From assembly GCA_963844545.1 (NCBI GenBank), contig CAWJOX010000026.1:1040730-1064729 (forward strand): a DNA stretch of 24,000 nucleotides. Direction: 5' to 3'. This document shows, piece by piece, positions 1 through 12,156 of the stretch. Below the pieces are notes generated by a model. The model searched no databases. It had not been told where the DNA came from and was given only the letters and a program-made list of their open reading frames with translations. This DNA comes from an uncultured Alphaproteobacteria bacterium (GTDB lineage Bacteria > Pseudomonadota > Alphaproteobacteria > Rhizobiales > Xanthobacteraceae). Position 1 is the first letter of the stretch. Every line of letters begins with the position of its first letter. Made by a program: the position numbers and the translations under genes.

Positions 1-514
1 GGGCTGCGCGACGTGACGATCTTCGCCAGCGGCGGTCTCGATGAAGATTCGATCGCTGCTTTCGTCAAGGTGAATGCACCGATTGACGGGCTCGGCGTCG
101 GCACCAGTCTCACCACGTCCGCGGACGCTCCGACGCTCGATTGCGTCTACAAATTGCAGGAATACGCCGGCCTGCCGCGGCGCAAGCAGTCGGCAAAGAA
201 AGCCACTTGGCCGGGCCGCAAACAAGTGTGGCGCCGCTACGACGCAGACGGCCGCATGATTGGCGACCTGCTAGGGCGTTGAAGGCGAAGTGAAAGAGGG
301 CGAGCCATTGATCCAGCCGGTGATGCAAAACGGCAAACGCCTGCGGTCTGCGCCATCGCTCGACGAAATTCGCCAACACGCCAAGCGCGAGCTGCAACGA
401 TTGCCGGCCCCCTTGCGCGCGCTTGATCCGGCCATGACCTATCCGGTGACGGTCGCCGACGAACTCAAAGCGCTGGCGGCAGAGTTTGATCGGCGTTTGC
501 AAACGGCGAAATGA
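1..514 (+). pseudogene. pncB: Nicotinate phosphoribosyltransferase, 3' part (gene starts upstream of window); frame broken by an apparent 1-nt insertion in the GGG run at 274-276
   Basis: Frame 1 is open from nt 1 and reads ...FASGGLDEDSI...GLGVGTSL...CVYKLQEY...GRKQVWRRYDADGRMIGDLLGR*, which is NAPRTase-like. The expected C-terminus continues in frame 2 (ORF 290..514: EGEPLIQPVMQNGKRL..SLDEIRQHAKRELQRLP). Removing one G from cta-GGG-cgt gives a continuous ...GDLLGVEGEVKEGEPL.... The TGA stop at 512-514 overlaps the pncA ATG (ATGA). Confidence 0.8.
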
Positions 515-1158
515 AAAGCATGAACGAAGGCGCGACCATCGGCGGCAATGAAGTTCTGATCGTCATCGACGTGCAGAACGATTTCTGTCCGGGCGGTGCG
601 CTCGCGGTGCCGCGCGGCGACGAGATCGTTCCGATCGTCAATCGTCTGGCGGCGCGATTCCGTAATGTCGTGTTGACGCAGGACTGGCATCCGCACGGCC
701 ACTTCTCGTTTGCTTCAAGTCACGTTGGCAAAAAGCCGTTCGAGACCATCGCCGCATCCTACGGTCCGCAAGTGTTGTGGCCGGGCCACTGCGTGCAGGG
801 CACGCCTGGCGCCGCATTTCATCCGGCGCTCGACATTCCGCATGCCGCCTTGGTGCTGCGCAAAGGCATGGAACCCACGATCGATTCCTATTCGGCGTTC
901 TACGAGAACGATCGCAAGACGCCGACCGGGCTCGTCGGCTATTTGCGCGAGCGCGGCCTCACTCGCGCATTCATCGCCGGGCTCGCGTTCGATTTCTGCG
1001 TGCGTTACTCGGCCGAAGACGCACAGCGCGAGGGCTTTACGGTCTTCGTGGTCGAGGATGCCTGCCGCGGCATTGACGTTGATGGCTCGGTCGCCGCAAC
1101 CCGGGCGAGTCTCACAACGCTGGGCGTGGCCTGCATCTCGGCGCTCGCCGCCGCTTGA
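511..1158 (+). CDS. pncA: Nicotinamidase/pyrazinamidase (isochorismatase fold)
   Basis: 215-aa ORF with PncA hallmarks: LIVIDVQNDFCPGGALAV, TQDWHPxxHxSF, and AGLAFDFCV (catalytic Cys). Translationally coupled to pncB, the next enzyme of the NAD salvage pathway. Confidence 0.9.
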   Translation: MKSMNEGATIGGNEVLIVIDVQNDFCPGGALAVPRGDEIVPIVNRLAARFRNVVLTQDWHPHGHFSFASSHVGKKPFETIAASYGPQVLWPGHCVQGTPGAAFHPALDIPHAALVLRKGMEPTIDSYSAFYENDRKTPTGLVGYLRERGLTRAFIAGLAFDFCVRYSAEDAQREGFTVFVVEDACRGIDVDGSVAATRASLTTLGVACISALAAA

Positions 1159-1351
1159 ACCCTGCCAAGGGCCTGCCATCGTTATACAATTCCAGTACTG
1201 CGGCATACACTTACGGCGACGCAGCGTACTCCTGTGTGCAACGCACAAAGTCGTTGACTCTACGTTGCAGAGGCAGGACATTACAAAAATGTAAACCGCC
1301 GGTATCCGAATGCGTCATCAAACCGTCGCACCGTCCAGTCTGCCGTCGCTG

Positions 1352-9036: not shown

Positions 9037-9168
9037 TTCCGCTGGCCTCCAATTTCCGCGCCTTTATTGCTCTATCCGCGGGCCCACGCTAGTAGCTTTT
9101 GCACGTTGCGGAGGCATGGTTCCGCCCTTCTTAGATCGGCCGACATCGGCTGCTCGTCGAGAGTGATT

Positions 9169-10739
9169 ATGTCGACCGTCGGACGTGATCACACCGGCCG
9201 GACACCTTCGGGGTTCGCCGGTTTCGTCGACCGGCTCAGCCAACCGGGCCGTCGTTTTATCGTAGAACATACCGAAGGCACGATCGTGCTTTCGGCGCTT
9301 GTTGCATTCGTTGTGCTGTGGATGGTCTTCGACGTCGTCTCTTTGGCGTCGGTGGACTTGCATCCCGATTGGAGCGAAGCCGCGCTTTGGGCGCACCACT
9401 TCGCCTTCGGCTACAAGCATCCGCCGATGACGGCCTGGCTGTTCATGCTGTGGTTTGCGGTGTTTCCGCGCCAGGACTGGGCAGCGGATCTTTTGAATGT
9501 GCTGGTCGTTGCGATGGGTCTCGGCGTCACTTGGCGTTTGTTGCGCGATCATCTCGACAAGAATCGCGCGCTGTTAGGGCTCGTCGCGCTGGTTCTGATT
9601 CCGCTCTACGACATCAAGACCGCGATCCTGAACGCCAACACCGTCATGATTCCGTTCTGGGCGGCGGCGCTGTTGTTTTACCTGCGGGCTCGGCGCGGCC
9701 TGGGCATCCTCGATGCTTTCCTCGCCGGAGCATTCGCCAGCCTCACGGTTTTCGGCAAATACTGGGCGCTGTTTCTGGTTGCCGGCATGGTGGTTGCCTC
9801 AGTTGTCGGCCCGGGGACGCGACGCTTCTGGCGCTCGCCTGCGCCCTACGTCATGGCGCTGGGGGCTGCAATCGTCATTGCGCCTCACGTCTGGTGGTTC
9901 GTGAGCGAGCGCGGCGGCACCAGTTACGCGTTCATGCGCGACACCGTCGTCGTCAGCCAGTCATTCGGGGCGGCGCTGCTGCGCTCGGTACGCTACCTTA
10001 TCAACTCCGTCGCCTACGCCATCGTGCCGATTGTTTTTCTCGCCGCGCTTCGGCCAAGCAGGGCGGCGCTCGCTGAAATGATCTGGCCGCGCGACGACGA
10101 CCGCCGGCAGGCATTGTTGTTGTTCTTGGTTCCGCTTGCTGTTGCCGGCGTTGGTCAATCTGGCCATTCCGTATCGGTTGACCGCGGATTGGACCTATCC
10201 GAACTGGGCTCTGCTGCCAGTCGTCCTCTACGCCTCGCGCGACATAATAGTCGATGAGCGCACGGTGGCGCGCGGCCGGCCTCGTTGCGCTGGCGGTGAC
10301 CGTGGCCGCTATTGTTGTGTCGCCGGTGGTCGCTTACGCCAGGCTGACGCGGGCCGATGACCAATATCGAGCCCATTTCCGCGAAGTTGCACGGCTCGCG
10401 GATCGCCTCGCGGGCCAGCCCGTGCGTCTATTCTGGGGCTCCCCGAAAATCACTGCGGGGCTGCCGTTCTATTTGCCAGAGGCCAGTCCTTTGATGGTCG
10501 GCCCATTGTCGGCGGAAGGCCGCGCAGCAATCGGCGCTCACGGACTTGTCGTGGTTTGCCTCAGCACCGATGCGCCGTGCCGAAGGGTCGGTGCGGAATT
10601 TGCGGCCGCCGGCGCGCACGCGGCAAACGCCAGGTTTACGCGCAGCTTCCTGGGCGTCTCGGGCGAGCCGATGAATTTTGAAATCACCGTGGTGCCGCCG
10701 GCTCCGACGCCGGCGCGCACCACGAAGCAATCTCAATAA
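9169..10739 (+). pseudogene. GT39/ArnT-like (PMT_2 family) membrane glycosyltransferase with a C-terminal periplasmic domain; frame broken twice (about 10120-10140 and 10251-10262)
   Basis: Polytopic protein from ATG 9169 (MSTVGRDH...). Contains ...HPDWSEAALWAHHFAFGYKHPPMTAW...GKYWALFL..., typical of ArnT/PMT-like GT-C enzymes. The hydrophobic sense passes from frame 1 (..ALLLFLVPL) to frame 2 (LLPALVNLAIPYRLTADWTYPNWALLPVVLYASRDIIVD) to frame 3 (SARWRAAGLVALAVTVAAIVVSPVVAY... to the stop at 10739). The span is 1571 nt (3n+2), consistent with two 1-nt insertions. Confidence 0.75.
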
Positions 10740-12156
10740 CGGTACTGATCGGTCTTGAAAGGACCGGCGACCGGGATGCCGATATAGGTCGACTGCTTTT
10801 GCGACAGCTGCGTGAGCTTCACCCCGATCTTGTCGAGATGCAGCCGCGCGACCTTCTCGTCGAGTTGCTTCGGCAGCGTGTAGACCTTCTTCTGATACTT
10901 GCCGGGATTGGCCCACAGCTCGATCTGCGCCAGCGTCTGGTTGGTGAACGACGACGACATCACGAAGCTCGGATGACCCATGGCGTTGCCGAGATTGACC
11001 AGCCGGCCTTCCGACAACAGGATGATGCGCTTGCCGTCGGGGAACTCGATCTCGTCAACTTGCGGCTTGATGTTCTGCCATTTCAGGTTCTTCAGCGCCG
11101 CAACCTGAATCTCGCTGTCGAAGTGGCCGATATTGCAGACGATGGCGCGGTGCTTCATCTTGCGCATGTGGTCGATGGTGATGACGTCGACATTGCCGGT
11201 CGCGGTGCAGAAGATGTCGGCGCGCGGTGCGGCCTCCTCCATCGTCACGACCTCGTAGCCTTCCATCGCCGCCTGCAGCGCGCAGATCGGATCGATCTCG
11301 GAGACCAGCACCCGGCAGCCGGCCTGGCGCAGCGAGGCCGCCGAGCCCTTGCCGACGTCGCCGAAGCCGGCGACCATCGCCACCTTGCCCGCCATCATCA
11401 CGTCGGTGCCGCGGCGGATGCCGTCGACCAGCGACTCGCGGCAGCCGTAGAGATTGTCGAACTTCGACTTGGTGACGCTGTCGTTGACGTTGATGGCGGG
11501 GAACAGAAGCTTGCCTTCCTTCTCCATCTGATAGAGCCGATGAACGCCGGTCGTGGTCTCTTCGGTGACGCCGCGAATTTCCTTAGCGGTCTTGCTGTAC
11601 CAGCCCGGCTTCTTGACCAGACGCTCCTTGATTGCGGCGAACAGAACCTCTTCTTCCTCATTGTTCGGATGATGCAGCACGGTCGGGAGTCATTTCCGCC
11701 TGCGAGCCGAGATGCATAAGCAGCGTGGCATCGCCGCCGTCATCAAGGATCATGTTCGGTGCGCCGCCATCGGACCATTCGAAGATGCGGTGGGTGTATT
11801 CCCAATAATCGTGCAGCGATTCGCCCTTTGACTGCGAATACCGGCGTGCCGCTCGCGGCGACGGCCGCCGCAGCGTGGTCCTGCGTCGAATAGATGTTGC
11901 AGGAGGCCCAGCGCACGTCGGCGCCGAGCGCCTTGAGCGTATCGATCAGCACAGCGGTCTGAATGGTCATATGCAGCGAGCCGGCAATCCGCGCGCCGCG
12001 CAGCGGCTGCTCCGGACCATATTCCTCGCGAGTCGCCATCAGGCCGGGCATTTCGGTCTCGGCGATGGAGAGTTCCTTTTGGCCCCATTCGGCGAGGCTG
12101 ATGTCCTTGACGACGTAATCGGCAGGCGAAGCTTTGGTTTTGGTCGCGGTGCTCAT
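10733..12156 (-). pseudogene. ahcY: Adenosylhomocysteinase (SAH hydrolase); frame broken twice, each at a 3-base G/C homopolymer (11685-11687 and 11824-11826)
   Basis: N-terminal ORF 11743..12156 ([35 protein letters not shown]...[32 protein letters not shown]...PVFAVKG). A middle segment is readable only in the third frame ([43 protein letters not shown]). C-terminal ORF 10733..11680 ([11 protein letters not shown]...[14 protein letters not shown]...[31 protein letters not shown]...DQYRY). Deleting one base from aaaGGGcga and one from actCCCgac (- strand) restores a single 473-codon ORF. The span is 1424 nt (3n+2). Confidence 0.9.

Follow-up and report, generated by a model that had tools for sequence, protein, structure and literature searches.

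We analyzed a stretch of 24,000 nucleotides (hereinafter the window; G000:C26:1040730-1064729, where G000 is this alphaproteobacterial genome, GenBank assembly GCA_963844545.1, and C26 is the window's contig) in whose first half five conserved genes lose their reading frames at seven sites, namely pncB, a fumA-type fumarase gene, a GT2-GtrA glycosyltransferase gene, a GT39 glycosyltransferase gene and ahcY. The seven extra bases responsible, together with an eighth that lies in pncB just upstream of the window, are very probably consensus errors of a metagenome-assembled genome (MAG) built from long reads alone, and the organism itself most likely possesses intact copies of these genes. This reading follows from the occurrence of single-base insertions (+1 lesions) throughout the genome and in essential genes, the lack of nonsense mutations and of sequence decay, the recurrence of such lesions in sister long-read assemblies and a methylation-motif signature at the breaks. 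G000 has a size of 5.9 Mb with 62% G+C and is 94% complete, and its 28 contigs include one of 1.88 Mb; the nearest named proteins to those of the window come from Xanthobacteraceae/Pseudolabrys MAGs. For comparison, orthologous regions were taken from up to seven same-genus genomes (74–90% DNA identity) out of a searched set with one genome per GTDB species, and frames were determined by tblastn searches of the relatives' proteins against the window in conjunction with local multiple DNA alignments. These protein-guided frames and alignments replaced pairwise blastn indel lists, which at 75–80% identity were too noisy.

At each of the seven sites the window carries exactly one base more than its relatives, seen as a single window-only alignment column (at 278, 2977, 8181, 10139, 10273, 11685–7 and 11824–6) that is missing from all of the two to seven relatives aligned per site. 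The seven one-base breaks in five genes that had been proposed from the letters alone (hereinafter the original prediction) were thereby recovered, displaced by no more than a few bases from the positions first given, and the comparison with the closest genomes suggested there found the extra bases absent from every aligned relative. The 3′ part of pncB (nicotinate phosphoribosyltransferase; 1–502, forward strand) has one extra base at about 274–279, with the frame passing from 1 to 2 at 273/278 and the NAPRTase_C domain falling in a 74-aa open reading frame (ORF) past the stop. Contrary to the original prediction that this gene was hit once, the pncB proteins of four relatives (445–474 aa) yielded tblastn high-scoring segment pairs in three successive frames on C26, revealing a second +1 break at C26:1040703-1040707, 22–26 nt before the first base of the window and bringing the local total to eight. 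The class I fumarate hydratase gene (fumA-type; 2475–4146, reverse strand) has one extra base at about 2974–2978 (frame –1 to –2 at 2974/2975; placed at 2976 by the frameshift hidden Markov model [HMM] described below), and its 601-aa read-through ORF matches the Pfam Fumerase domain in its N-terminal part only; relatives (552–556 aa) match it at 91–94% identity before the break and 92–98% after it. The gene for a family 2 glycosyltransferase (GT2) with a GtrA-like C-terminus (7872–9036, reverse strand) has one extra base at about 8153–8184 (frame –1 to –2); its relatives (352–383 aa) are split at 8153/8158 in tblastn, the window-only DNA column lies at 8181, and intact GT2+GtrA genes are called at the sister loci. 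Here the wrong frame stays open into lepA, creating a spurious 1051-aa ORF (5881–9036, reverse strand) with Glycos_transf_2 and all LepA domains, which an automatic annotator could call a novel multidomain protein.

The remaining two genes are each hit twice. The GT39/PMT_2-type membrane glycosyltransferase gene (9028–10739, forward strand) has extra bases at about 10139 and 10273, such that relatives match it in three successive frames (1 to 2 at 10136/7 and 2 to 3 at 10275/6 by tblastn), with the PMT_2 domain confined to a truncated 409-aa first ORF. In ahcY (S-adenosylhomocysteine [SAH] hydrolase; 10733–12156, reverse strand), the extra bases lie in the CCC at 11824–11826 and the GGG at 11685–11687, both are missing in seven of seven relatives, and the frame passes from –1 to –2 at 11824–8 and from –2 to –3 at 11685/6. 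The identity of this gene is established by the 473–475-aa proteins of relatives, which can be aligned over their full length through the three frames (82–97% identity), and by its AdoHcyase (PF05221) and AdoHcyase_NAD (PF00670) domains, which are spread over three pieces at this one locus and occur nowhere else in the genome. More generally, a Pfam scan of the window's ORFs found the domains of the expected genes scattered over ORF pieces. The predicted span arithmetic holds as well: with gene limits from the HMM and the ORF list, fumA (2475–4146) and GT2 (7872–8967) have lengths of 3n+1, and the doubly hit ahcY (10733–12156) and GT39 gene (9028–10739) have lengths of 3n+2.

We then gauged how common such lesions are with an unbiased sample, in which the proteins of twenty 20-kb pieces of a relative, G015, were searched against the whole of G000, which yielded alignments of 214 orthologs with 211 kb of coding sequence in total. 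G000 showed 11 frame changes in this sample, on contigs C4, C7, C11, C15 and C26, 10 of them consisting of one extra base. This amounts to approximately one frame break per 20 kb of coding sequence (0.052/kb), with about 5% of the sampled orthologs broken and an extrapolated total of ~240 breaks genome-wide. When the breaks of the window and of the DNA upstream of it are added, the validated events number 20, of which 19 are +1 (p=4 × 10–5), a direction bias and lesion spectrum of the kind that a sequencing technology leaves. Internal nonsense codons were absent from the 71,140 aligned residues of the ortholog sample. The sole near-internal nonsense codon among them is a TGA in place of a conserved tryptophan, nine residues before the C-terminus of a paralogous protein (G000:C6:194282). 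The reciprocal count of frameshifts in G015 was confounded by read-through ORFs of G000 entering the comparison, and only clear cases were used from it.

The principal biological alternative, which the original prediction had also put forward, is a real and very recent pseudogenization, with +1 insertions inactivating pncB, the class I fumarase, two glycosyltransferases and SAH hydrolase. It has in its favor that the extra bases stand in the deposited assembly, and that many bacteria can do without accessory glycosyltransferases. Genes that decay naturally accumulate lesions of several kinds (nonsense mutations, deletions and insertion sequences), and among bacterial indels deletions tend to predominate. 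Here, 19 of the 20 lesions are one-base insertions unaccompanied by nonsense mutations, and the sequence past the breaks has not diverged. For instance, one comparison gave identities of 94% before and 98% after the fumA break and of 97%, 94% and 97% for the three ahcY pieces; across relatives, the downstream identity (92–98% for fumA and 90–97% for ahcY) is as high as that upstream. Thus, instead of the mixed lesions and relaxed downstream constraint that would mark pseudogenes, we found +1 insertions followed by sequence conserved at 90–98% identity.

The functions of the broken genes tell further against a real loss. The single-copy aspS (aspartyl-tRNA synthetase; C7, ~74,730) has one extra base with a TAA directly after the insertion, folD also carries a break, and further broken genes include those for a 2104-aa HAMP histidine kinase and a squalene/phytoene synthase. 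The genome has one copy of ahcY, and a search of this 94% complete assembly for a methylthioadenosine (MTA)/SAH nucleosidase (TIGR01704; mtnN/pfs), a check that the original prediction had suggested alongside one for fumC, found none, an outcome that speaks against a real loss of ahcY. As for the second part of that check, fumC is present and could cover the loss of fumA; a backup that would make the loss tolerable was found for fumA alone, and none for ahcY or aspS. An organism truly lacking aspS, folD and SAH hydrolase could not live, and real decay would not be restricted to one type of lesion. The lesion is found genome-wide irrespective of gene function, as expected of an artifact. Given these essential-gene breaks, the uniform type of lesion, the undecayed downstream sequence and the motif signature described below, we regard pseudogenization as very unlikely. 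A different way of taking the extra bases as real would be that this organism and its long-read relatives live with +1 insertions in the hundreds, many of which would lie at CcrM sites (GANTC), through an insertion hotspot or a frame correction at the level of expression, with aspS and ahcY remaining functional; we consider this highly improbable.

Relatives assembled in few, long contigs have +1 breaks of their own at other positions. Thus, G002 has breaks in ahcY (at about residue 367; loci L009/L002) and in a gene for a 613-aa histidine kinase (L043), and G015 has them in lepA (locus L011, ~2150, at a GAACTC) and in several of the sampled genes. No such breaks were seen in the more fragmented assemblies, which are presumed to derive from short reads. 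When run on 47 kb of G017, a fragmented relative presumed to be assembled from short reads, the frameshift HMM made no calls. Three ENA metagenome contigs of 324–371 kb with Flye-style names encode a 315-aa ahcY fragment like that of the window: ERZ25039460 (L088:9526-10948), ERZ25039490 (L089) and ERZ25039506 (L090:10001-10948). In the alignment, a single extra base peculiar to each of them falls no more than 25 nt from the window's site at 11687, and other split genes occur nearby. Although choosing matches to the 315-aa fragment selects for breaks in that stretch, the breakage of ahcY at different bases of one 25-nt stretch in four independent assemblies marks a recurrent error hotspot, points to a systematic cause and is a further argument against pseudogenization.

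Such a cause is suggested by the sequence context of the breaks. In Alphaproteobacteria, the methyltransferase CcrM recognizes GANTC. G000 encodes an intact CcrM ortholog of 375 aa (G000:C25:6563-7690; L091:1165-2292, reverse strand) with a full-length match to Caulobacter CcrM (6PBD; e-value 9 × 10–152), and GANTC occurs in this genome at 1.7 sites per kb, an estimated half or so of the expectation from base composition. Both ahcY sites abut this motif (GATTC at 11818 and GAGTC at 11687). Genome-wide calls came from a codon-model Viterbi gene finder with explicit frameshift states, the HMM, which recovered nine of the 11 relative-validated events of the sample and four of the seven window sites, and which made 440 skip-one-base (+1) and 293 skip-two-base calls across G000. 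Of the skip-one calls, 23% have GANTC, or that motif with one base inserted, no more than 10 nt away, versus 11.6% of random coding positions (p=1 × 10–9); at skip-two calls the figure is flat (11.5%), as are those for seven control patterns in this proximity test. The whole excess is carried by GAANTC|GANTTC, the form with the methylated A doubled, which is 3.3-fold enriched at +1 calls (p=1 × 10–12) and not enriched at skip-two calls; other GANNTC forms stand at 0.9-fold, and GATC, CCWGG, TCGA, CGCG and five control palindromic patterns showed no enrichment at +1 calls. Consistent with this, an unbiased k-mer scan returned GAACTC/GAGTTC as the top hexamer (10-fold, p=2 × 10–19), the orthologous sites at validated events read GAGTC or GACTC in G015 and GAACTC or GACTTC in G000, and the same signature is present in five of the 20 skip-one calls of G015 itself, that of its broken lepA included. 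From an excess of ~33 HMM calls over ~205 presumed true events, reckoned with the measured precision of the HMM, we estimate that about one-sixth of the breaks are doublings of A (or of T on the opposite strand) in GANTC, mostly GACTC/GAGTC becoming GAACTC/GAGTTC, with ~1% of the GACTC/GAGTC sites affected (38 of ~3,400). The enrichment of the breaks at a methylation motif, with A-doubling symmetric between the strands, is the kind of context dependence that an artifact would display and is at odds with pseudogenization; it also accounts for the repeated breakage of the same short stretch of ahcY in independent assemblies.

This dependence on a methylation motif suggests Nanopore sequencing, for which the assembly would be of the Flye/Medaka type. 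In the mechanism that we propose, N6-methyladenine at GANTC would distort the signal such that the base-caller or polisher adds a base, which would cover both ahcY sites. Methylation-induced Nanopore errors have been described in general (PMC11610573, PMC11610603), and GANTC-associated, potentially methylation-related errors have been reported in Brucella R10.4.1 assemblies (PMC12392509). The known cases at GATC, CCWGG and Brucella GANTC resemble the present one in their concentration at the site of a methyltransferase encoded by the genome, here CcrM, and differ in that only ~1% of sites are affected here.

The original prediction had favored an insertion-biased sequencing or assembly artifact with locally poor polishing, acting in homopolymers. 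The genome-wide +1 lesions and the motif strongly support the artifact, and the homopolymer part finds no genome-wide support. At least three events had been predicted to sit in three-base G/C runs, and exactly three do (both ahcY sites and the pncB site; the other four window sites lie in GC/GCTG-type contexts). Such triplets show, however, no genome-wide enrichment near +1 calls (26.3% versus 25.8%), and GGG/CCC, GGGG/CCCC and AAA/TTT are likewise not enriched near these calls, so we rejected homopolymers as the cause. The better-known residual error of Nanopore data is the homopolymer deletion. In this respect G000, with insertions outnumbering deletions ~10:1, departs from the residual indels of Nanopore-only (Flye + Medaka) MAGs, which it otherwise resembles in its few very long contigs, in the splitting of conserved genes genome-wide by single-base indels and in the similarly split genes of the sister ENA assemblies with Flye-style names. 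A published soil MAG pipeline of this type uses metaFlye with one round of Medaka 1.8.0 polishing, meant to lower indels (PMC12313526). Reductive decay, as in Mycobacterium leprae or recent symbionts, also interrupts many conserved genes by frameshifts; unlike in those cases, G000 has a large (5.9 Mb), free-living-like genome in which a single lesion type breaks essential single-copy genes, with no nonsense mutations or downstream decay.

The clustering of the breaks in the first half of the window, which had been predicted to exceed chance, is real: the genome-wide rate leads one to expect 0.5 events in the coding sequence of this half and seven were seen (Poisson p=1.2 × 10–6), which is significant even when corrected for 490 bins of 12 kb (p ~6 × 10–4). 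The error-dense zone spans roughly C26:1,040,700-1,052,560 (~12 kb); in the 20 kb upstream of the window we validated one further +1 event only, besides the pncB break. It is not the only such zone, as three validated events of the unbiased sample fall within 17 kb at C26:1814-1831 kb, and the skip-one calls are over-dispersed in 12-kb bins (variance/mean 1.54), with several dense zones of 10–17 kb. The breaks not covered by the motif, and the cluster itself, probably have thin or conflicting read support behind them, which might arise from a local drop in coverage or from collapsed strain variation over the ~12-kb zone. The second of these, which concerns only the cause of the cluster and is compatible with consensus error in general, would have co-occurring strains merged over the zone and the polisher retaining both alleles of a single-nucleotide polymorphism side by side. 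At both ahcY sites the extra base and its neighbor do correspond to two alleles among relatives (CCTTT or CCCTT in relatives versus CCCTTT in the window; TC-GG or TG-GG versus TCGGG), and the over-dispersion into zones is in keeping with it; yet these points are purely circumstantial, any insertion beside a similar base would read likewise, and GANTC methylation explains both ahcY sites too. We accordingly treat strain collapse as a possible but rather doubtful source of the cluster.

Given that all breaks run in the same direction, such that a +1 shift would restore full-length products, we also considered programmed recoding, in which ribosomal frameshifting or transcriptional slippage would read through them. 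A programmed site would be expected to be kept in relatives together with its slippery motif. We found no slippery or stimulatory motif common to the eight sites, and the sites are not conserved in the two to seven same-genus relatives, whose frames are all uninterrupted there. Moreover, some breaks, such as that in aspS, lead straight into a stop codon and do not lie in a run of repeated bases. Programmed recoding is hence barely conceivable.

Several observations weigh against the attribution of the breaks to consensus error, or against parts of it. Only two of the eight local breaks adjoin GANTC, and the motif leaves the cluster itself unexplained. Published methylation-induced errors are mostly substitutions, whereas the event here is a one-base insertion that doubles an A, and we infer this A-doubling at GANTC from the sequences of G000 and G015. 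The platform is likewise inferred, from the contiguity of the assembly, the Flye-style contig names of the sister records and the motif signature. The precision of the HMM is modest, with eight of 14 skip-one calls and one of eight skip-two calls borne out by relatives. Finally, no independent assembly of the same species with intact alleles was found: an exact-protein look-up of an intact window protein gave no match, the closest ahcY proteins reach at most 97% identity, and neither the ahcY site as it stands nor its version lacking the extra C turned up when JGI metagenome contigs were scanned for the exact patterns.

On balance, the frame breaks are very probably not a real biological feature, and their analysis has yielded a technically useful by-product, the A-doubling signature at GANTC. 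The NAD salvage gene, the fumarase, the glycosylation pair and SAH hydrolase are to be treated as intact, and the breaks have little bearing on the biology of the organism. The practical consequences are wider: since the searched set has one genome per GTDB species, G000 presumably represents its species, and because false +1 frameshifts split ~5% of its genes, systematic errors will enter any pseudogene count, metabolic reconstruction or protein catalogue that relies on it. The change of GACTC/GAGTC to GAACTC/GAGTTC offers a simple error flag, readable from sequence alone, for long-read genomes of Alphaproteobacteria, and if it is confirmed on reads, it makes a case for re-polishing these catalogues with methylation-aware models.

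The other genes of the window are unbroken, as had been predicted. Within the error-dense zone, lepA (5881–7686, reverse strand; 601 aa) serves as an internal control, matching relatives in a single frame at 94–98% identity, and the hydrolase and pncA of the first half are each matched by relatives in one frame. In the second half (12507–24000), all genes are single-frame with respect to relatives, with no frame breaks; the sole multi-frame match there is due to a frameshift of the relative G002 itself. Candidate breaks at ~14650, 16.4 kb and 20.2 kb were rejected as shadow-frame matches or relatives' own frameshifts.

Elsewhere on the same contig, the densest predicted zone of HMM calls lies at C26:677000-688000, with ~20 calls over eight consecutive genes, followed by C26:406000-416500 with eight calls over five genes. 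Orthologous DNA for the former (C26:677-688 kb) was found in none of five relatives; it is probably an accessory island, and its calls may be inflated by atypical codon usage. Two further features of the window were recorded. At 12001–14000 the G+C content falls to 0.54–0.57 (~0.62 elsewhere), a drop that sets in immediately past ahcY, at the end of the error-dense zone; the genes in this stretch (12549–13637 and 13666–14289) are 60–81% conserved in relatives. Between fumA and the next gene, a gene-free region (4150–5218, especially 4734–4938 and 4887–4938) is made up of short GC-rich repeat units that are present at dozens of loci in G005, G009, G015 and G017 with 85–98% identity and look like a dispersed family akin to repetitive extragenic palindromes or miniature inverted-repeat transposable elements (REP/MITE-like). 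This region is also a synteny junction, the pncB-fumA and lepA-ahcY blocks on its two sides lying at separate loci in relatives.

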